Shown here piece by piece: positions 5,873-11,876 of a stretch of 64,000 bases of DNA. The position numbers and the translations under genes are program-made. The stretch spans positions 29,882 through 93,881 of the forward strand of contig JACQKW010000015.1 of assembly GCA_016204385.1 (NCBI GenBank), read 5' to 3'. The notes beneath the pieces were generated by a model that was not told the DNA's origin, did not search any database, and was given only the letters and a program-made list of their open reading frames with translations. This DNA comes from Candidatus Liptonbacteria bacterium (GTDB lineage Bacteria > Patescibacteriota > Minisyncoccia > UBA6257 > 2-01-FULL-56-20). How positions within the stretch are numbered: the first letter of the stretch is position 1; each line of letters opens with the position of its first letter.

Positions 5873-7160
5873 ATTTTTGGAGCACTTTGGGAATTTTAAT
5901 TTTGCCTTCCTTCGTCTGGAAATTCTCAAAAATTGTGATCAGCGTCCGGCCGACGGCAAAGGCGGTGCCATTCAGCATATGCACAAATTCAATGTCCTTG
6001 CCGGTGCGATACTTTACGCTCAGCCGCCGCGCTTGGTAGTCGGTCGTGTTAGAAGCTGAATGCGTCTCGCGGTATTCGCCCTTGCCGTCCCGCTGGCCCG
6101 GCATCCACGTCTCAATATCGAACTTGGCGGCCGCCGGATCGCCGAGGTCTGCCGTGCACATCTCGATAACTCGGTACGGAAGCTCAAGTTTTTGCATAAG
6201 GTGCTCTTGAACCCCTAAGAGCAACCGGTGCTCGTGAACCGAGGTTTCCGGTTTAACAAAACTGAACATCTCGAACTTATCAAACTGATGCACGCGCAGA
6301 ATCCCTTTGGTGTCCTTGCCGTAACTCCCGGCTTCTCTCCGGAAACACGTGGAGAACCCCACATACCGCCGCGGCAAGTCCTTTTCCTCGAAAACCTCAT
6401 TCTGGTGCATCGGCCCCAATGCCTGCTCTGAGGTGCCGGCTAAATAGAGATCGTCTTTTTCTATTTTGTAGACTTCTTCCCCGCCGCGTTCAAGATACCC
6501 CATACCAGACATAGATTTTTCGTTCAAGAGCACCGGAGGAATCACCGGAATAAAAGGCGTGTCGGAAACTGTGAGGCCGTTTTTTTTGATAATGTGCGTT
6601 AAGATTTTCTGATCGGCGAGCGTCTCTAAAACCAGTTGTCCCAGCGCAAACTCAAGCCGCGCCGCCGCTCCAAGAAGATACCCGAACCGGCTGCCCGCGA
6701 CTTTCGCCGCCCGTTCAACGTCAATTAATCCAAGGCTCTCGGCGAGCGTCAGATAATCTTTAGGCGGGAAAGAAAATTTTGATTTCTCTCCGACTTCGCA
6801 GAGCACCTTATTATCCTTCTCGCTTTTCCCGATGGGTGCGTCCGGGAGCGGGAGATTCGGGATTTTTCGCCACACAGCCATCCGCCGCCCCTCGATCACC
6901 TCGAGTTTCACCTCCTCGGATTTGATGTCTTCCTTATTTTTCTTTGCCGCCTCGATATTCCGCGCCTCGGCTTGCCCCGAGTGTACCGAGTGGGAAAATT
7001 TCTTCTGCCCCGCCCGCAAATCATCGAGTTTTTTCGTAATCTCGCGCCACTCGCGGTCGAGCTTCAAAAATTCGTCCACGAGCTCCGGTTGAACGCCCTT
7101 CTTTTCTATGCCGCGTTTGATGCGGTCCGGCTCCTCGCGGAGGAGTTTTATATCAATCAT
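5847..7160 (-). CDS. serS: Seryl-tRNA synthetase
   Basis: 437 aa. MIDIKLLREEPDRIKRGIEKKG N-terminal coiled-coil arm and class II core (FRREAGSYGKDTKGILRVHQF). Its ATG overlaps the RT stop codon (ATGA at 7157-7160). Confidence 0.92.
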   Translation of the reverse strand: MIDIKLLREEPDRIKRGIEKKGVQPELVDEFLKLDREWREITKKLDDLRAGQKKFSHSVHSGQAEARNIEAAKKNKEDIKSEEVKLEVIEGRRMAVWRKIPNLPLPDAPIGKSEKDNKVLCEVGEKSKFSFPPKDYLTLAESLGLIDVERAAKVAGSRFGYLLGAAARLEFALGQLVLETLADQKILTHIIKKNGLTVSDTPFIPVIPPVLLNEKSMSGMGYLERGGEEVYKIEKDDLYLAGTSEQALGPMHQNEVFEEKDLPRRYVGFSTCFRREAGSYGKDTKGILRVHQFDKFEMFSFVKPETSVHEHRLLLGVQEHLMQKLELPYRVIEMCTADLGDPAAAKFDIETWMPGQRDGKGEYRETHSASNTTDYQARRLSVKYRTGKDIEFVHMLNGTAFAVGRTLITIFENFQTKEGKIKIPKVLQKYVGAKVIS

Positions 7161-7161
7161 T
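7126..7161. repeat. Direct repeat copy 1 (serS 5' end), left boundary of the DGR cassette
   Basis: tccggctcctcgcggaggagttttatatcaatcatt. It is 35/36 identical to 9930-9965, at an offset of 2804 bp. Confidence 0.9.
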
Positions 7162-8257
7162 GACTCCTATCATACCTTAATTTTTCTTCATCGTGAAGCA
7201 TTGCGGAAACGTCCGTGTGAAGTTTTCGGGTGTTGCCGTGTGCTAATAGTCCGAAATAAGAATTGAATGTTTCGGGCGTGTGGCTTGCCATAATTTTCTT
7301 CATCATTCTTCGCCTCGTGCTCGTACGCAACACCCGATGGTCGGGAAAATGTACCCATCCCAAAAAATCAACGCCCGACGCAAGCGTTTTAATAAAAACC
7401 TTATCGGGGTGGAGGGTAAGTTGTAACTTTTCGCGCAGGAATTCTCGGATCAGCAACGTGTTTTGCTCGAGCCAGACGCGGTCTTTGGAAAGAAATATAA
7501 AGTCGTCGGCATACCGGAGGTAATACCGCGCCTTAAGCCCGTGTTTTACAAATTGATCAAATTCATTCATATAGACATTCACGAGAAGCTGTGAGGTGAG
7601 ATTGCCAAGTGGAAGGCCTGCCCACCCGAAGCTGTGCGAAGGCGGGCCGGCGCCTGGCCGCATGGACGAAAAACTGCTAATAATCTCTTGGAGAAGTTCT
7701 ATAATTTCTCCGTCGCGAATATAACTCCGCAAAATTCTCATAAGAATCGTGTGGTTAATATTTGCGAAGAATTTTCTGATGTCGCATTTCAAAACCCAGC
7801 AGGTTCTCGTATTGTTTTTGCTCACTTTGTAGGCAAATATGCGGAAGCGGTTTAATGCTCTATGCGTCCCCTTCTCCTTTCTGCATGAGAAAGAATCGGC
7901 AATAAAAGCCTTGTCAAAAAATGGATAGAGTACTCGATAGATGGCGTGGTGCACGAGGCGGTCGCGGACGCTCGCCTTGTGGATGTTCCGCGGTTTGGGA
8001 TCGGAGATATTGAACGCTTGATAGCCGCCGTGGCGATAGGTATGATAGACAAGATCATCGTGGAGCAGAAAGAGGTTATCGATAAGATGCAATGAAAATT
8101 CTTGAACATCGCGCTTGCCGCGTTTTCCTTTCACAAACTCCCTCCAAGCCTCCAAAAAATTCTCTACGCTCGCAATATCCGCAAAGTTTTTAGCAAATTG
8201 GATTTTCATATTTCTTTTCCCATGAACGCCCCCCCCCCGCTTCAATTTACCCATCAT
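7157..8257 (-). CDS. DGR-type reverse transcriptase
   Basis: 366-aa ORF. RT motifs include LPLGNLTSQLLVNVYMNEFD (the DGR-specific [LIV]GxxxSQ) and YADD (RYADDFIFL), next to a TR/VR pair. The likely true start is ATG at 8209 (MKIQFAKNF...). Confidence 0.9.
   Translation of the reverse strand: MMGKLKRGGGVHGKRNMKIQFAKNFADIASVENFLEAWREFVKGKRGKRDVQEFSLHLIDNLFLLHDDLVYHTYRHGGYQAFNISDPKPRNIHKASVRDRLVHHAIYRVLYPFFDKAFIADSFSCRKEKGTHRALNRFRIFAYKVSKNNTRTCWVLKCDIRKFFANINHTILMRILRSYIRDGEIIELLQEIISSFSSMRPGAGPPSHSFGWAGLPLGNLTSQLLVNVYMNEFDQFVKHGLKARYYLRYADDFIFLSKDRVWLEQNTLLIREFLREKLQLTLHPDKVFIKTLASGVDFLGWVHFPDHRVLRTSTRRRMMKKIMASHTPETFNSYFGLLAHGNTRKLHTDVSAMLHDEEKLRYDRSQ
8229..8238. repeat. C10/G10 homopolymer tract between the RT and avd starts
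   Basis: Ten consecutive C on the plus strand, between the probable RT start (8209) and the avd start (8268). Confidence 0.9.
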
Positions 8258-8267
8258 TCAGCATCTT

Positions 8268-8603
8268 GTGGCAACTTACAAAGTCTGGCATGAATTTTTG
8301 CCGCACATTCCCAAAGACGCACGGTACACGCTGGGGACAAAAATAGATGGGCTGTTCGTAGAAACGGTAGAGTTGATTTTCACGGCGACGTATCTTGGTA
8401 AAAGCCAGAAATTTCCTTACGTGCAAAACGCGGCAACAAAACTTGATCTTGTAAAATTCTTCCTTCAAATTCTCTGGGAAATCAACGCACTTGATAATAA
8501 AAAGTATATCCGCATTTCTGAAAAACTAAACGAGATCGGCAGGATGCTCGGCGGCTGGAACAGGCAGTTAAACAGGGAAAACCCCGCAAGGAGCGGGGAA
8601 TAA
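8268..8603 (+). CDS. avd: Avd-like four-helix-bundle protein (DGR accessory variability determinant)
   Basis: 111 aa with a GTG start. YKVWHEFLPHIPKDARYTLGTKIDGLF...KLDLVKFFLQILWEINALDNKKYIRISEKLNEIGRMLGGW resembles the four-helix-bundle/S23-IVS family to which Avd belongs. It sits between RT and TR but on the opposite strand. Confidence 0.7.
   Translation: MATYKVWHEFLPHIPKDARYTLGTKIDGLFVETVELIFTATYLGKSQKFPYVQNAATKLDLVKFFLQILWEINALDNKKYIRISEKLNEIGRMLGGWNRQLNRENPARSGE
8582..8598 (-). terminator. GC hairpin plus U-tract 11 nt 3' of the TR (possible TR-RNA 3' end or structural element)
   Basis: ccccgc-aagga-gcgggg. On the minus strand it is followed by TTTTCCCTGTT. It lies inside the last avd codons on the other strand. 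Confidence 0.4.
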
Positions 8604-8609
8604 AGAGAT

Positions 8610-8744
8610 TTGCGGACGGCGGCAAAGCGGTAGTTCGAGTTCCACTCGTTGTCGAACCAGTTCAGGTTCAGGTTACGCTTCGAACCGTTCCTGTCGAGGT
8701 ACGCCACAGTGCGGTTGCCGTTCGGATTCCGCCACACGGAACCA
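8610..8744 (-). repeat. DGR template repeat (TR)
   Basis: 135 nt, 124/135 identical to 9110-9244. All 11 differences are T on the plus strand of the TR, which is A on the minus (coding) strand. It encodes an Asn(AAC)-rich sequence. Confidence 0.92.
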
Positions 8745-9000
8745 TCGTACAAAATATCGCCTGCGCCACTGCCCTTCGAATACTCTTGGGGTTGTATCGT
8801 ATTCGGGATCTCGAAAAATCCTAATCCCTTAATATTTTGCACCAAGTATCTTTATTTTTGAGGAAAGAGAGAATATCTCTAGCCATAAGCGTACCCATAG
8901 CTATTCCCTATTCAGTGTTTCCGGAATTCGACTGTTGTGAACCGTGGCCCACAGCTTGTGTTGAGTCTACTATCCAAATTCAAATTATCACATGGTGCAG

Positions 9001-9043
9001 AAATGAAAAGCCCGTGCAGAAGACCGAAGTCCTGTGCACGGGC
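9001..9043 (-). terminator. Rho-independent terminator downstream of the DGR target gene
   Basis: Minus strand GCCCGTGCA...TGCACGGGC, followed by TTTTCATTT. Confidence 0.6.
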
Positions 9044-9082
9044 CAAGTTCCCAAGGGACAAAGAATCTCAAAGCGTTGAGGA

Positions 9083-9103
9083 TTCAGAGTCCTAAGGTCT
9101 GAA
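9083..9103 (-). promoter_or_regulatory. Short hairpin immediately 3' of VR and the stop codon
   Basis: ttcaga-gtcctaagg-tctgaa (6-bp stem) starting 3 nt after the stop. DGR targets are known to use a hairpin downstream of VR, but this one is weak. Confidence 0.3.
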
Positions 9104-9105
9104 AG

Positions 9106-9723
9106 CTACTTGCGGACGGCGGCAAAGCGGTAGTGCGAGAACCACTCGTTGTCGAACCAGTGCAGGCGCAGGTCACGCTTCGAACCGTACCTGACGAGGT
9201 ACGCCACAGTGCGGTAGCCGTGCGGATTCCGCCACACGGAACCAAGAGCGATGATCGGGAACTCGCGCTGCTTCTCGGGATACTCCGCGCCGAAGGCGAG
9301 TAGCTCGGGAAGGGTTGCGGGACGGAGACCACGCGCGTCGAGCTCGCAGAGCGCGTTGTCCGACGAAACCCTCCGGTTGAGATGGACAAGCTCGATCGCG
9401 ACTTCTGCCGTGCCTTTCTGTGTAGTCGGGAAGTTCTTGGAGGTGATGTCGGAATTCGTCCAGTTGTACTTCCCTGCCGCGACCATCTCCTCGACGGAGT
9501 GAGCGTAGTCGAGGGTGAGGCGGAACACGTTCTTCGCCCCTTCCATGATCGCGACAAGCGCATCCGCGATCTTCCCGACCGGAACATCACCGTCGTCGGT
9601 TACGAGCTGGTGAATCTGCTCGTCTGAAACCTTCCGCTCGCGGAGCGCACGGACAAGTTTGTCCGCGAACCCAGCGATCCAGCCCGCCCCTGAAACGATT
9701 GCCGTTACGTCCTTCCGTGCCAT
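9106..9723 (-). CDS. DGR variable (target) protein, VR at the C-terminus
   Basis: 205-aa ORF with strong SD GAGGAGGAAGTC-ATG. The C-terminal 45 codons are the VR (GSVWRNPHGYRTVAYLVRYGSKRDLRLHWFDNEWFSHYRFAAVRK). I see no signal peptide or TM helix. Confidence 0.85.
   Translation of the reverse strand: MARKDVTAIVSGAGWIAGFADKLVRALRERKVSDEQIHQLVTDDGDVPVGKIADALVAIMEGAKNVFRLTLDYAHSVEEMVAAGKYNWTNSDITSKNFPTTQKGTAEVAIELVHLNRRVSSDNALCELDARGLRPATLPELLAFGAEYPEKQREFPIIALGSVWRNPHGYRTVAYLVRYGSKRDLRLHWFDNEWFSHYRFAAVRK
9110..9244 (-). repeat. DGR variable repeat (VR)
   Basis: Counterpart of the TR. 9 codons are changed (8 of 9 TR AAC Asn codons plus one GAC). The 3'-terminal ~25 nt (GC-rich, ...GCCGCCGTCCGCAA) is identical to the TR, like an IMH. 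Confidence 0.92.
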
Positions 9724-9789
9724 GACTTCCTCCTCTTCGGCTTGCCCCTCATTCCGACCTTATGCCGGAATCCCAGGCGTGCCAGTTTT

Positions 9790-9835
9790 GGTTACAGCCT
9801 TGAATCCGTGAGCGAGCGGACTCAAAGCTGTAACC
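9790..9835 (-). promoter_or_regulatory. Long 5'-UTR hairpin of the DGR target mRNA
   Basis: 19-bp stem with an 8-nt loop. Two positions are C.A/A.C on the plus strand but G.U on the minus-strand transcript. Confidence 0.55.
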
Positions 9836-9874
9836 AAGAAAACCGCAAGTTATCGATTTTTAAGGTACCCGGGC

Positions 9875-9904
9875 ATTGTAGCATATAAACTATATTCTTG
9901 TCAA
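9875..9904 (-). promoter_or_regulatory. Consensus sigma70-type promoter of the DGR target gene
   Basis: Minus strand TTGACA-N18-TACAAT. The block ATGCTACAATGCCC is shared with the promoter at 20568-20597. Confidence 0.6.
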
Positions 9905-9929
9905 GTTCTGGTATGGGGGGTGAACTTTC

Positions 9930-9964
9930 TCCGGCTCCTCGCGGAGGAGTTTAATATCAATCAT
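9930..9964 (-). pseudogene. Relic serS 5' fragment (first 11 codons, MIDIKLLREEP)
   Basis: ATG at 9964 followed by the same codons as the real serS. The frame then diverges and stops after 24 codons inside the target-gene promoter. Confidence 0.8.
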
Positions 9965-9965
9965 T
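9930..9965. repeat. Direct repeat copy 2 (relic serS 5' end), right boundary of the DGR cassette
   Basis: tccggctcctcgcggaggagtttaatatcaatcatt. The single difference from copy 1 is a synonymous Ile codon (ATA/ATT). Confidence 0.9.
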
Positions 9966-10006
9966 AAAATTAATCATATACCAAACCTGTCTGCTCCTCG
10001 TAACCG

Positions 10007-10015
10007 CCCCCCCCC
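10007..10015. repeat. C9 homopolymer tract
   Basis: Nine consecutive C next to the hairpin at 10016-10040. Confidence 0.9.
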
Positions 10016-10040
10016 AACCTGCCCGCCATGCGGGCAGGTT
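10016..10040 (+). terminator. Hairpin plus T-tract in the relic-serS/thrS intergenic region
   Basis: aacctgcccg-ccatg-cgggcaggtt, then ttcattttc. No plus-strand gene lies upstream, so its role is unclear. Confidence 0.35.
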
Positions 10041-10094
10041 TTCATTTTCTCTATAGCTTTCAAAAAATCCGCTACAATCCTATAATCTTAGAAC

Positions 10095-11876
10095 ATGGCA
10101 AAGAAGTCCTCCGCATCGAATCTCGAGCATATCCGCCATTCTTTGGCACATCTCCTCGCGGCGGCAGTCTTGAGGAAATTCCCCAAGGTAAAGCTTGGCA
10201 TCGGGCCCGTAATTGAAGACGGGTTTTATTATGATTTCCTCCTCCACGGCAATGAGAAATTTTCTCCCGATGATTTGCGAGAATTCGAGAAGGCGATCCG
10301 TGATTTCATTCGCGACGATTTGAATTTTATCGGCAAAAAAGTCTCGGCCGCCGAAGCGAAAAAGCTTTTCGCGGGACAGCCTTTTAAACTCGAACTTATC
10401 AAGGATTTTGTAAAAGAAAAGCAAAATCTCACCACCTACCGCACTGGAGACATATTTACTGACCTGTGCCGCGGCGGACATGTGAAGAATACGAAAGAAA
10501 TCAACCCCGACGCATTCAAACTCACGAAAATTGCGGGCGCCTACTGGAGGGGCGACGAAAAAAATTCCCAGCTCCAACGGATCTACGGCGTGGCGTTTGC
10601 GACCAAGAAAGAACTCGGAGAGTACCTCGCAATGCTTGAGGAAGCGCGAAAGCGGGACCATAAAGTCCTGGGTCCCGATCTCGATCTTTTCACATTTTCC
10701 GAACTTGTGGGCTCGGGACTCCCTTTGTGGACTCCGAAGGGCACGATTCTTCGGGACCTCCTCGATAATTTTGTCTGGGAACTCCGCGCACGCCGCGGCT
10801 ACGAGCGGGTGGATATCCCGCACATCACAAAAAAGGAACTCTACGTGCGGAGCGGCCATTGGGAGAAATTTAAGAACGAGCTTTTTAAAATCGTGACTCG
10901 CGAGGGGCACCTCCTCGCCATAAAACCGATGAACTGCCCCCACCACACGCAAATCTACGCGCGGCGAAAGTGGAGCTACCGTGAACTGCCCCAACGATAC
11001 GCCTCCACCACAAAAGTCTACCGCGACGAACAAACGGGCGAGCTTGCGGGCCTTGCACGCGTACGCTCGATCACGCAGGACGATGCGCATTCCTTCTGCC
11101 GCAAATCGCAGATTGCGGGCGAGATGTCGAGTATCTGGGACATTGTAGAGGAGTTTTATGCGGGCTGCGGATTCCCGAATCTTGAAGTGCGTCTTTCGTT
11201 CCATGACCCGAAGCAGCCGAAGAAATATCTTGGGTCGCCCGCAGTATGGAAAAAGGCGGAGGCGGAACTCGCGGCGCTCGCACAATCGCGATTAGGACCT
11301 GCGTTTGAGAGAAAAGTGAAGGTTGACATGGGCGAGGCGGCGTTCTACGGGCCGAAAATTGATTTCATTGCCAAAGATTCGCTCGGCAGGAATCTGCAGG
11401 TCGCCACGATCCAGCTTGATATGAATATGCCCGAGCGATTCCGTCTTGCGTGCGTGAATGAGAAAGGGAAAGACGAGGGGATTTTCATGATTCACGCGGC
11501 AATCATGGGTTCGATCGAGAGGTTCCTCGCCGCGTTCATCGAGCATACTGGGGGCAAGTTTCCTGTGTGGCTCTCTCCCGTGCAGGCGGAAATTATAAAC
11601 GTCGGCTCCGGCCAGAGGAAGTATGCGGAAAAAATATTTAAAGGTTTGAAAACGGCAAGTGTCCGCGCGCGGCTCTCCGACGAGAATCTGACCGTCGGCA
11701 AGCGCATCCGCGAAGCGGAACTCCAAAAGATTCCCTACGTCCTTGTAGTCGGAGAAAAGGAAGAAGCCGCAGGCACCGTGAATGTCCGGCATTACCGGCG
11801 AGGCCAGGAAGGAGAAATAAAATTCGAAGCGTTCATTCAAAAAGTGATGGACGAGATCACGCGAAAAACGGTCTAG
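10095..11876 (+). CDS. thrS: Threonyl-tRNA synthetase (no N-terminal TGS domain)
   Basis: 593 aa. HIRHSLAHLLAAAV...GIGPVIEDGFYYDF editing-domain start, then class II core and anticodon-binding domain. TATAAT lies 8 nt upstream of the ATG. Confidence 0.92.
   Translation: MAKKSSASNLEHIRHSLAHLLAAAVLRKFPKVKLGIGPVIEDGFYYDFLLHGNEKFSPDDLREFEKAIRDFIRDDLNFIGKKVSAAEAKKLFAGQPFKLELIKDFVKEKQNLTTYRTGDIFTDLCRGGHVKNTKEINPDAFKLTKIAGAYWRGDEKNSQLQRIYGVAFATKKELGEYLAMLEEARKRDHKVLGPDLDLFTFSELVGSGLPLWTPKGTILRDLLDNFVWELRARRGYERVDIPHITKKELYVRSGHWEKFKNELFKIVTREGHLLAIKPMNCPHHTQIYARRKWSYRELPQRYASTTKVYRDEQTGELAGLARVRSITQDDAHSFCRKSQIAGEMSSIWDIVEEFYAGCGFPNLEVRLSFHDPKQPKKYLGSPAVWKKAEAELAALAQSRLGPAFERKVKVDMGEAAFYGPKIDFIAKDSLGRNLQVATIQLDMNMPERFRLACVNEKGKDEGIFMIHAAIMGSIERFLAAFIEHTGGKFPVWLSPVQAEIINVGSGQRKYAEKIFKGLKTASVRARLSDENLTVGKRIREAELQKIPYVLVVGEKEEAAGTVNVRHYRRGQEGEIKFEAFIQKVMDEITRKTV

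Follow-up and report, generated by a model that had tools for sequence, protein, structure and literature searches.

A B3-type DGR of Candidatus Liptonbacteria with a conserved structured RNA 5' of the TR and a conserved simple repeat in the start of avd

Layout of the cassette and its closest described relatives

Among described DGRs, the closest to the one studied here are those of architecture B3, written TR-(avd)-RT, in which avd runs on the reverse strand; the sections of Wu et al. 2018 (NAR, PMC5758913) considered here report this arrangement for 90% of CPR DGRs. At the RNA level the point of comparison is BPP-1, in which the primer strand is followed by 2 nt, the stop-duplex strand, a short stem-loop, unpaired adenosines and a long stem-loop; immediately flanking the TR are, on its 5' side, the strand that pairs with the stop-duplex strand and, on its 3' side, a stem-loop that binds Avd (Handa et al., PMC6182149; bioRxiv 10.1101/2023.10.23.563531). 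An Avd-binding stem-loop just 3' of the TR has been proposed for 207 of 278 Avd-containing DGRs, CPR members included, and, with 40 nt before and 100 nt after the TR as input, putative cPRT Stop duplexes have been assigned in CPR DGRs as well (Handa et al., bioRxiv 10.1101/2023.10.23.563531). In Trichodesmium erythraeum, the TR is a discrete, separately promoted non-coding RNA with a main transcript of 265 nt (Pfreundt et al. 2014, PMC4143802).

The window analysed here, a stretch of 64,000 nucleotides from a Candidatus Liptonbacteria MAG, carries a standard CPR-type DGR of architecture B3 (Table 1). The target gene with its VR, the TR and the RT follow one another on the minus strand, and avd lies on the plus strand between TR and RT. 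An initial annotation had listed these elements together with a hairpin and a U-tract after the TR, and all of them are present in the sequence. It had also called the layout atypical, which does not hold, as Wu et al. 2018 describe the same layout under B3 and avd is divergent from the RT in 75 of the 75 related loci that have enough upstream DNA to check its orientation. The annotation itself had raised the point that an opposite-strand avd might turn out to be common and already described; judged from these loci and from the sections of that paper considered here, it is both for CPR DGRs. The core order and the reverse-strand avd that define B3 are found in the window and in all 75 relatives, and order, strands and host group (CPR/Patescibacteria) are identical to those of Wu et al. 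2018, so far as those sections go, with no difference in gene layout. The same sections describe neither a leader RNA, nor a hairpin 3' of the TR, nor a simple repeat in avd. Two conserved features of this locus were not found described in the literature searched, namely a structured RNA upstream of the TR that pairs with the sequence flanking the TR on its 3' side, and a poly-C tract at the beginning of avd. Overall, we regard a B3 CPR DGR with a leader-TR RNA permuted relative to BPP-1 and a frame-changed avd start as probably the best explanation of the locus.

The TR and the VR form a 134-nt pair whose mismatches all fall at TR adenines (11 of 11), and the same bias is seen in 59 of 73 related loci. 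The VR sits at the C-terminus of the target protein and reaches its stop codon; no Pfam or NCBIfam domain match was obtained for the target gene. The RT matches RVT_1 at 1e-24 in libraries that hold no DGR-specific RT model, and its translation carries the DGR-type LGNLTSQ and YADD. A motif 4 of the form [I/L/V]GxxxSQ together with YxDD marks DGR-clade RTs (Doulatov 2004; Wu 2018). RT homologues align from ATG 8209 onwards, and the RT stop codon overlaps the serS start as ATGA. The two copies of the direct repeat D2 bracket the whole cassette, and the serS 5' end is duplicated. A metagenome pattern scan found no second copy of the window's own locus, and exact-protein look-ups of its avd and RT products gave no match, although the Avd is in the collection as P0001.

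Table 1. Features of the DGR locus, in positions of the window
Feature	Position	Strand	Evidence or remark
49-nt direct repeat D2	7126..7174 (proximal), 9930-9978 (distal)		86% identity, spacing 2804 nt
DGR RT, 350 aa from ATG 8209	7157..8209 (alternative start 8257)	-	ORF list, RVT_1, homologue alignment
avd 5' region: ATG 8222-8224, C10 run 8229-8238, in-frame extension TPPPRFNLPIIQHL 8226-8267	8222..8267	+	sequence, homologues
avd as annotated, 111 aa, GTG start	8268..8603	+	bAvd and DivGenRetAVD matches
U-tract UUUUCCCUGUUU	8570..8581	-	directly after stem-loop
Stem-loop CCCCGC-UCCUU-GCGGGG	8582..8598	-	terminator scan, local fold, covariation
Strand a' UCUUUAUU	8599..8606	-	linker between TR end and hairpin
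TR	8611..8744	-	TR/VR comparison; repeat D1
Structured leader of DGR RNA, ~230 nt	8745..8977	-	RNAalifold, covariation, covariance model
Leader helix P, 12 bp	8842-8831/8758-8747	-	mapped from alignment
Leader inner helix	8792-8784/8779-8771	-	mapped from alignment
Leader inner hairpin	8827-8824/8809-8806	-	mapped from alignment
Conserved junction UACUUG between a and helix P	8848-8843	-	6 nt
Leader strand a AAUAAAGA, candidate primer-side strand	8849..8856	-	complementary to a'
Leader helix H2	8913-8893/8890-8871	-	mapped from alignment
Leader helix H1	8953-8947/8942-8936	-	mapped from alignment
Extended -10 promoter TG-n-GATAAT	8984..8992	-	predicted; transcription start near 8977 inferred
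Terminator-like hairpin, then UUUUCAUUUCU	9010..9043	-	inverted repeat I4; ~65 nt past target stop codon
Target gene, 205 aa	9106..9723	-	ORF list; C-terminal VR 9111-9244

RNA structures on either side of the TR

A covarying stem-loop starts 12 nt after the TR. It is detected by the terminator scan and is the centroid feature of the local fold, and the 81-nt local fold alone is unremarkable (z = -0.64). Because single-sequence folds are not significant, the reality of this hairpin rests on comparative evidence. A MAFFT alignment of the region (A1) left about half of the rows out of register and was replaced by a covariance-model alignment. In the latter, which is fitted to the model and biased towards its structure, 86.8% of cells pair compared with 70.3% in shuffles; double-change cells number 81 against 23 in shuffles, and compensatory changes occur at 7 of 7 pairs. 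At least 4 U are present in the first 6 nt past the stem in 62 of 68 homologues, with a mean of 7.1 U in 10 nt. These data bear out the earlier suggestion of a conserved hairpin that could end a discrete TR RNA. Across loci the hairpin stands at a constant distance of about 23 nt from the sequence antisense to the MLGGW motif of Avd, while its place relative to the avd stop codon varies, the codon being located past, within or ahead of the hairpin; the TR end is 0-40 nt from that stop codon in nearly all loci. By its sequence the hairpin looks like an intrinsic terminator. Its position equals that of the Avd-binding stem-loop of BPP-1, by analogy with which it is a putative Avd-binding site here. 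A search for an RT promoter inside antisense avd gave no clear conserved cluster; since no conserved RT promoter was found, expression of the RT may rely on transcripts that read through the hairpin, which would then be a leaky and not a strict terminator. A promoter-like cluster on the avd strand within the RT coding sequence was set aside, as it may be a by-product of conserved RT codons.

A strong covariation signal is located 5' of the TR, in the leader. When 62 loci are aligned with MAFFT and folded with RNAalifold, 43 pairs result, and compensatory changes occur in 38 of these; 95.5% of cells pair, compared with 69.2% in shuffled and 39-53% in slid controls, and there are 753 double-change cells against 214 in shuffles. 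The covariance model R2 has a single match in the 64-kb window (8743-8861, 102.6 bits) and gives one match per DGR in sequences and lineages outside its building set. Rfam 15 returned no relevant match at E <= 5 for positions 7000-10100 on either strand, and thus none to RT-associated motifs such as RT-10, which Weinberg et al. 2017 gave for the BPP-1 spacer. The predicted promoter of the leader has counterparts among the relatives: TGnTAnnnT stands at a fixed place in 48 of 62 loci, 24 +/- 2 nt upstream of helix H1, and promoter-like sites are concentrated at 220-255 nt before the TR. Homologues, too, have a GC hairpin and a T-run immediately before the DGR-RNA promoter. At the other end of the leader, TR-VR homology begins 2 nt past the 3' strand of helix P in the window and 2-5 nt past it in all aligned loci.

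The leader also appears to pair with the linker 3' of the TR. For strands a and a', the duplex energy of matched loci is -7.86 kcal/mol, whereas pairs permuted between loci give -5.73 +/- 0.23 kcal/mol (0 of 300 permutations), and a:a' likewise forms when the 396-nt RNA is folded by MFE without constraints. Compensatory changes are seen when the consensus pair AAAUGAAGA/UCUUCAUUU is set beside that of the window (AAUAAAGA/UCUUUAUU), of locus L011 (CAUACGA/UCGUAUG) or of locus L023 (AAAUAACA/UGUUAUUU). The duplex of the window itself is short and AU-rich, with 8 bp and about -6 kcal/mol.

The initial annotation had assumed an RNA co-linear with that of BPP-1, in which TR, antisense avd and RT would form one transcript, the priming and RT-binding spacer would be antisense to avd and the hairpin would be merely its first element. 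Such an order has the precedent of BPP-1, whose essential elements are all 3' of the TR except for a short upstream segment, and the read-through that it requires is plausible for the reason given above. We consider it very improbable, however, given the U-tract that follows the hairpin in most loci and the lack of signal downstream of it. The antisense avd region has no excess structure (561-nt fold, z = +0.69), RNAduplex energies of the upstream flank and of the TR end against about 380 nt downstream equal those of mismatched controls, and the strand that covaries with the TR 3' linker is a leader strand, not a downstream one. Unlike the priming and RT-binding elements of BPP-1, which are 3' of the TR, the structure found here is 5' of it. 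The concern that spacer function must be antisense to avd is therefore probably moot. Predicted partners of the TR end that cluster near the G-run were not taken as pairing, as very large loops were allowed and GT-repeat variants cannot pair alike; pairing of the G-run with the C-rich end of the TR was rejected, since it is imperfect and the GT and GA variants do not fit.

It could also be argued that the hairpin is a plain intrinsic terminator, that the leader has another role, such as stability, processing or regulation, and that the resemblance to BPP-1 is coincidental. The hairpin is indeed like other terminators of the window, at 9043-9010 followed by UUUUCAUUUCU and at 10016-10040 followed by TTTCATTTTCT, and no sequence or structure homology to the BPP-1 spacer is detectable here. 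This explanation seems unlikely to us in view of how closely the structures fit the TR: the 3' strand of helix P abuts the start of TR-VR homology in all aligned loci and a', which covaries with a, sits flush in the linker from the TR end to the hairpin. Such clamping of both TR boundaries is unexpected for a stability element. Moreover, three related loci (L002, L010 and L046) are without the standard hairpin and U-tract and swap them for a different pairing with no U-tract, which argues for a structural role beyond termination.

The topology of these pairings instead suggests that the leader-TR RNA is a circular permutation of the BPP-1 RNA. In the arrangement that we propose, transcription would yield the template as a separate RNA of about 400 nt, composed of leader, TR, a', hairpin and U-tract, its start, 3' end and termination efficiency being predictions. 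The two ends of the TR would be joined by a:a' and by helix P, 12 bp long and adjacent to it; these would act like the template:primer duplex and the cPRT Stop duplex of BPP-1, respectively. The domain inside P, which consists of a short hairpin, an A-rich segment and a longer helix, would be the counterpart of the RT-binding part of the BPP-1 spacer, and the 3' hairpin would both terminate transcription and serve as the Avd-binding stem-loop. Shared with BPP-1 are the stem-loop directly 3' of the TR, a duplex that involves the TR 3' end and a duplex of about 12 bp with one strand abutting the TR 5' end. The local order is likewise that of BPP-1, from the primer-side strand through a short junction to the stop-duplex strand, short hairpin, A-rich segment and longer helix. 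The primer-side strand and the scaffold, however, are 5' of the TR here and 3' in BPP-1, the RNA appears to end at the U-tract right past the stem-loop, there are two additional 5' hairpins (H1 and H2), a and P are separated by 6 nt where BPP-1 has a 2-nt junction, and avd is on the other strand. The cPRT Stop assignments of Handa et al. for CPR DGRs may differ from ours. For a discrete TR RNA the DGR of Trichodesmium erythraeum is a precedent, although it belongs to another clade and architecture and no leader structure or pairing has been described for it (Pfreundt et al. 2014, PMC4143802). If the RNA is permuted in this way, avd could stand in either orientation right after the TR with no overlap with spacer function.

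A simple repeat in the 5' coding region of avd

That avd is a genuine coding gene, as the initial annotation had it, is supported by dN of 0.18-0.34 against saturated dS and by 208 homologues. Its ORF exceeds the Pfam bAvd cut-off of 40 with 54.3 bits and falls short of the NCBIfam DivGenRetAVD cut-off of 80 with 69.8 bits. In direct comparison the protein is weakly similar to BPP-1 Avd (PDB 4DWL, E = 0.3), and it is identical to an NCBI entry from a Ca. Liptonbacteria MAG that is named 'four helix bundle protein'. When the upstream in-frame residues are added, the DivGenRetAVD match reaches profile position 1 and rises to 75.4 bits (same cut-off), and from its sequence the annotated avd is probably truncated at the N-terminus. 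The earlier remark that the avd and RT starts are tightly spaced was if anything too cautious, for ATG 8222, which reads into the C10 run, is only 12 nt from the RT start codon. That there is no room for divergent promoters is also correct; the gap is mostly filled by a conserved simple repeat within the avd frame.

This repeat, a run of C8 to C14 or an AC/TC repeat, is present in the avd-RT gap of 73 of 73 loci, six of which have dinucleotide repeats in place of the homopolymer, and such tracts are almost absent elsewhere in 583 kb. In 74 of 74 loci the core avd frame continues upstream across the run without a stop codon and reads it as PP(P); the run is followed by LP(I/V)(I/L)(Q/E), which shows synonymous codon variation and matches Avd profile positions 1-12. 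An ATG-initiated ORF reads into the run in 73 of 74 loci, compared with 37.7 expected from shuffles. Long-form homologues read MNTPPRFNLPILQHL and similar. In the window ATG 8222 is one frame off with C10, and C9 would yield MNAPPRFNLPIIQHLVATYK. With the frame corrected, the long Avd would begin MNAPPRFNLP and have 126 aa, against 111 aa for the short form. All three frame phases of the upstream ATG occur among the loci, with only-phase counts of 14, 32 and 21. We propose that the avd frame extends back through the C-run to the upstream ATG, which would be out of frame in most lineages, so that full-length Avd would need a frame change, either by recoding on the run or by a change in run length. 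Either recoding or phase variation is suggested by the position of the run, which lies in 5' coding sequence of avd and is mostly out of frame with the upstream ATG.

In the first of these, translation would start at the upstream ATG, and +1 or -1 ribosomal slippage on CCC at a poly-proline stall, or transcriptional slippage, would give low or conditional amounts of full-length Avd. CCC-C is reportedly a +1 slippery motif (Gamper et al. 2015). The open core frame, the excess of ATG-initiated ORFs and the conserved peptide after the run all fit such recoding, as does the stability of the out-of-frame state within lineages while the DGR seems to stay active. We hold it to be possible rather than probable, because the lineages include in-frame cases as well as shifts in either direction, a mixture that is unusual for programmed frameshifting, the dinucleotide-repeat variants fit poorly, and the conservation of the upstream ATG may partly be a by-product of antisense RT codons.

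The alternative is a slipped-strand contingency switch, in which changes in the DNA length of the C-run (or AC/TC repeat) turn full-length Avd and mutagenesis ON or OFF. Such a switch would fit the near restriction of these tracts to avd, the spread of run lengths between lineages and the occurrence of all frame phases, and the six dinucleotide-repeat loci favour a mechanism at the DNA level. As in the SSR contingency genes of Neisseria, Haemophilus and Campylobacter, and in CCC-C +1 sites, the repeat is in the first codons and its length decides whether the upstream ATG shares the reading frame of the gene. Those contingency genes differ in that the gene here encodes a retroelement accessory protein and shows no length polymorphism at the level of assembly consensus within a lineage: run length is invariant across samples at C10 (10 of 10), C11 (6 of 6), C11 (2 of 2) and C9 (10 of 10). 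Among 80 species-level loci surveyed for close pairs in which to compare run length, no pair exceeds 83% identity. Furthermore, in a related lineage whose ATG is out of frame in 10 of 10 assemblies, the VRs still differ between samples at 8 positions, all of them TR adenines. A switch of this kind therefore appears rather doubtful to us. No link between such simple repeats and DGRs was found in the literature searched.

Implications for CPR retroelements

CPR and DPANN lineages account for a very large share of natural DGR diversity, and to our knowledge the mechanistic work on DGRs is all based on the BPP-1 RNA. The present analysis offers a defined RNA of about 400 nt (8977 to about 8570) that could be used for reconstituting a CPR DGR, with the a:a' duplex, helix P and the 3' stem-loop as pairings that can be mutated. 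A permuted RNA would account for the viability of the B3 layout. If the RNA is indeed permuted relative to BPP-1, the RNP core would tolerate rewiring, which bears on the design of DGR mutagenesis tools. As a tentative generalization, and a somewhat doubtful one when both of its parts are required together, CPR/Patescibacteria DGRs would use a permuted RNA with a 5' scaffold and a terminator/Avd stem-loop, and would have full-length Avd gated by a frame change at poly-C (or AC/TC). The Avd annotations in many of these genomes probably fall short of the full protein. We know of little information on the restraint or scheduling of hypermutation for any DGR, and the conserved repeat in avd provides a concrete hypothesis of how these may be achieved in organisms with small genomes.

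Cassette layout in the window and in related loci

Re-examination of the ORFs, the repeats, the domain matches and the hairpin shows that the coordinates in the initial annotation of this diversity-generating retroelement (DGR) are correct. All 11 mismatches between the template repeat (TR) and the variable repeat (VR) of the target gene lie at TR adenines (11/11). The RT translation carries the LGNLTSQ and YADD motifs. The accessory protein Avd scores above the threshold of the Pfam bAvd model (54.3 bits, threshold 40), matches the NCBIfam DGR Avd model at 2e-19 and has an identical counterpart in a Candidatus Liptonbacteria MAG. A 126-aa ORF (8465-8845, minus) that spans the TR, part of the leader and part of the antisense of avd represents the TR translated in the reading frame of the VR; it has no family match and is very likely not a gene.

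Features of the DGR cassette and its RNA
Feature	Position	Strand	Description or basis
Target gene	9723-9106	minus	ORF, 205 aa; VR is its last 134 nt
VR	9244-9111	minus	134 nt, repeated as TR
Extended -10	TG 8992-8991, GATAAT 8989-8984	minus	alignment of 62 loci
Leader	8977-8745	minus	structured RNA 5' of TR; start near 8977 predicted
Helix P	8842-8831/8758-8747	minus	12 bp, within leader
TR	8744-8611	minus	134-nt copy of VR
Post-TR hairpin	8598-8582	minus	CCCCGC-N5-GCGGGG, then UUUUCCCUGUUU; terminator scan
avd ORF	8268-8603	plus	between TR and RT
RT	8209-7157	minus	RVT_1 at 1e-24

The initial annotation described an opposite-strand avd between TR and RT and called this layout atypical. The observation itself is correct, but the layout is the norm of the clade and has already been described, because Wu et al. 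2018 (PMC5758913) include it as architecture B3, TR-(avd)-RT, in which avd is encoded on the reverse strand, and because a divergent Avd homologue lies just upstream of the RT in 75/75 related loci with sufficient upstream DNA. These loci come from an RT-based scan with one genome per species, which yielded 80 loci of 59-70% identity, mostly labelled CPR/Patescibacteria. In nearly all loci the distance from the TR end to the avd stop codon is 0-40 nt, and the VR lies another 350-700 nt upstream. The plus-strand ORF is indeed a coding avd, and it is under purifying selection (dN 0.18-0.34, dS saturated).

The whole cassette is bracketed by a 49-nt direct repeat (7126-7174 and 9930-9978, 86% identical, 2804 nt apart) that duplicates the serS start codon, the first ~36 nt of serS and some upstream sequence, which suggests cassette insertion at the serS 5' end. 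Besides the window, similar flanking repeats of 36-72 nt occur in 4 of the 56 related loci tested (L020, L029, L050 and L079). The RT stop and the serS start overlap as ATGA at 7157-7160, and the last ~5 RT codons are part of the duplicated serS upstream region. At the other end, a strong inverted repeat with 21-nt arms (9788-9837, minus; 90% complementary, 8-nt loop) occurs upstream of the target gene, whose start codon is at 9723. It falls in the predicted 5' UTR, downstream of a near-consensus promoter (TTGACA-18-TACAAT with TG, 9904-9875), and its sole Rfam match is weak and by chance.

Conserved RNA structure on both sides of the TR

In almost every relative the equivalent place is occupied by a GC-rich stem and, after it, a GUUUUGUUUU-like motif, with stem sequences as varied as UCUCUCC/GGAGAGA, CCCCGC/GCGGGG and CUCCCGC/GCGGGAG. 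The single-sequence fold of the window hairpin is not significant. In a covariance-model alignment of 68 loci, in which fit to the model biases towards structure, 86.8% of the pairing cells pair against 70.3% when shuffled, 7/7 pairs show compensatory changes, and sliding the partner lowers pairing to 39-71%. The U-tract is kept in 62 of the 68 loci. The hairpin seen in the initial annotation is real and conserved. Across loci the spacing between the stem and the antisense of the Avd MLGGW motif is constant, and the avd stop codon falls after, within or before the stem depending on the locus; the constraint is therefore on nucleic-acid structure and not on the Avd tail. Putative Avd-binding stem-loops have been recognized just downstream of the TR in 207 of 278 Avd-containing DGRs, CPR included (Handa et al., bioRxiv 10.1101/2023.10.23.563531), and the post-TR hairpin matches this known element class in position. 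Three loci are without the standard hairpin and U-tract (L002:3581-3667, L010:3568-3654 and L046:3574-3660); in these, GCUCGGCGG follows closely on the TR and can pair with its complement CCGCCGAGC, which is antisense to the conserved Avd MLGGW codons, and this pairing looks like an alternative stem at the same place.

The RNA antisense to avd, 3' of the hairpin, shows no excess structure (z = +0.69) and pairs with the TR end or upstream flank no better than controls. Conserved structured RNA is found instead 5' of the TR, so that the concern about a spacer function encoded antisense to avd is probably moot. The VR-TR interval is conserved in length, as is the distance between the TR and a promoter-like site within it. 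In 48 of 62 aligned loci this site is an extended -10 (TGnTAnnnT), which immediately follows a GC hairpin and T-run that resemble a terminator and lie downstream of the VR. In the ~230 nt from this promoter to the TR, RNAalifold on a plain MAFFT alignment gives 43 pairs, 38 of them with compensatory changes; 95.5% of cells pair (69.2% shuffled, 39-53% in slid controls), and double-change cells number 753 against 214 shuffled. A specific model built from the TR-proximal 110 nt of this leader has a single match in the 64-kb window (8743-8861) and, in loci and lineages outside its building set, one match per DGR, directly 5' of the TR. Rfam 15 holds no match for the leader.

Just 5' of helix P, whose 3' strand ends 2-5 nt before the start of TR-VR homology, the leader carries strand a, AAAUGAAGA (AAUAAAGA at 8856-8849 in the window), which is complementary to strand a', UCUUCAUUU (UCUUUAUU at 8606-8599), in the linker that separates the TR end from the hairpin. 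Matched loci give an a:a' energy of -7.86 kcal/mol against -5.73 +/- 0.23 for leader and linker of different loci (0/300 permutations), and a contiguous helix of 7.56 bp against 6.34 +/- 0.16 bp permuted. The leader strand and the TR 3' linker covary, and the duplex also appears when the 396-nt RNA of the window is folded to its unconstrained MFE structure.

A simple repeat at the start of avd

The avd-RT gap contains G10 on the RT strand (8238-8229), and the same spot in 73/73 related loci holds G8-G14 or, in six, a dinucleotide repeat, of which five are (GT)9-15 and one is (GA)6. Such tracts number only 78 in 583 kb of locus DNA, with one other in the 64-kb window. The latter, a C9 run at 10007-10015, is the sole other G/C homopolymer of at least 8 nt there; it has the strand sense of the avd C10, lies ~30 nt past the distal flanking-repeat copy, is immediately followed by a terminator-like hairpin (10016-10040), and may be left over from an older cassette or belong to the insertion site. 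A 52-nt C-run beside the RT gene at the very contig end of another locus (L077:1-52) is probably an assembly artefact at the G/C tract position.

On the avd strand the C-run is within the avd reading frame. Many database Avd homologues of 120-148 aa start M..LNFHK..PP(P)R..LPIIQHL, in which the C-run encodes the prolines and LNFH comes from the antisense of RT codons 1-5. In 74/74 loci the Avd frame extends upstream through the run without a stop, and the LP(I/V)(I/L)(Q/E) residues after it show synonymous codon variation; adding the post-run residues extends the NCBIfam match to profile position 1 and raises it from 69.8 to 75.4 bits. The extended window Avd also has the length of Avd in the Bordetella phage DGR, BPP-1. 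An ATG-initiated ORF reads into the run in 73 of 74 loci (37.7 expected). Among loci where the upstream ATG has a single phase, it is in frame with Avd in 14, while 32 would require a +1 shift and 21 a -1 shift; full-length Avd by recoding on the C-run is a tentative reading. In the window, ATG 8222 with C10 is one frame off, and C9 would yield MNAPPRFNLPIIQHLVATYK. Low-rate phase variation of the DNA would act through such changes in length and is about as likely as recoding; the consensus run length is invariant across assemblies of different samples (C10 10/10, C11 6/6, C11 2/2), and in one out-of-frame, length-invariant lineage the VRs differ between samples at 8 positions, all TR adenines. 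The short Avd may also be sufficient. No connection between homopolymers, frameshifting or phase variation and either DGRs or Avd was found in the searchable literature.

A promoter-like TTGATA-17-TATGAT (8018-8046, plus) lies antisense inside the RT coding region, and homologues show a strong cluster of promoter-like sites 160-240 nt upstream of the avd core. This site may be the avd promoter, in which case the avd leader would overlap the RT 5' end in antisense, or may be a by-product of conserved RT codons.

Comparison with the BPP-1 and Trichodesmium RNAs

The predicted window RNA runs a, UACUUG, P 5' strand, short hairpin, conserved A-rich CGAAUACGAUACAG, longer helix, P 3' strand, TR, a', stem-loop and U-tract. 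In BPP-1, the primer strand Sp47-56 pairs with TR117-129 and is followed after 2 nt by Sp59-70, paired to avd369-379 just upstream of the TR (cPRT Stop), and then by a short stem-loop, unpaired adenosines, the thumb ring and the RT-binding stem-loop (Handa et al.). The local order of elements is the same, whereas the connectivity of the chain differs: the window arrangement would result if the BPP-1 3' end were joined to its 5' end and new ends were opened between the Avd-binding stem-loop and the primer strand. This topology, rather than demonstrated homology, suggests that the window DGR RNA is a circular permutation of the BPP-1 RNA, a functional reading that we infer from the observed structure and conservation. 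The discrete, separately promoted TR RNA of Trichodesmium (Pfreundt et al. 2014, PMC4143802) is a precedent that fits it. Within the reachable literature, the covarying leader 5' of the TR, the pairing between it and the TR 3' flank, the permuted DGR RNA implied here and the conserved simple repeat in the avd start appear to be new. A permuted RNA would explain how avd can come directly after the TR in either orientation.
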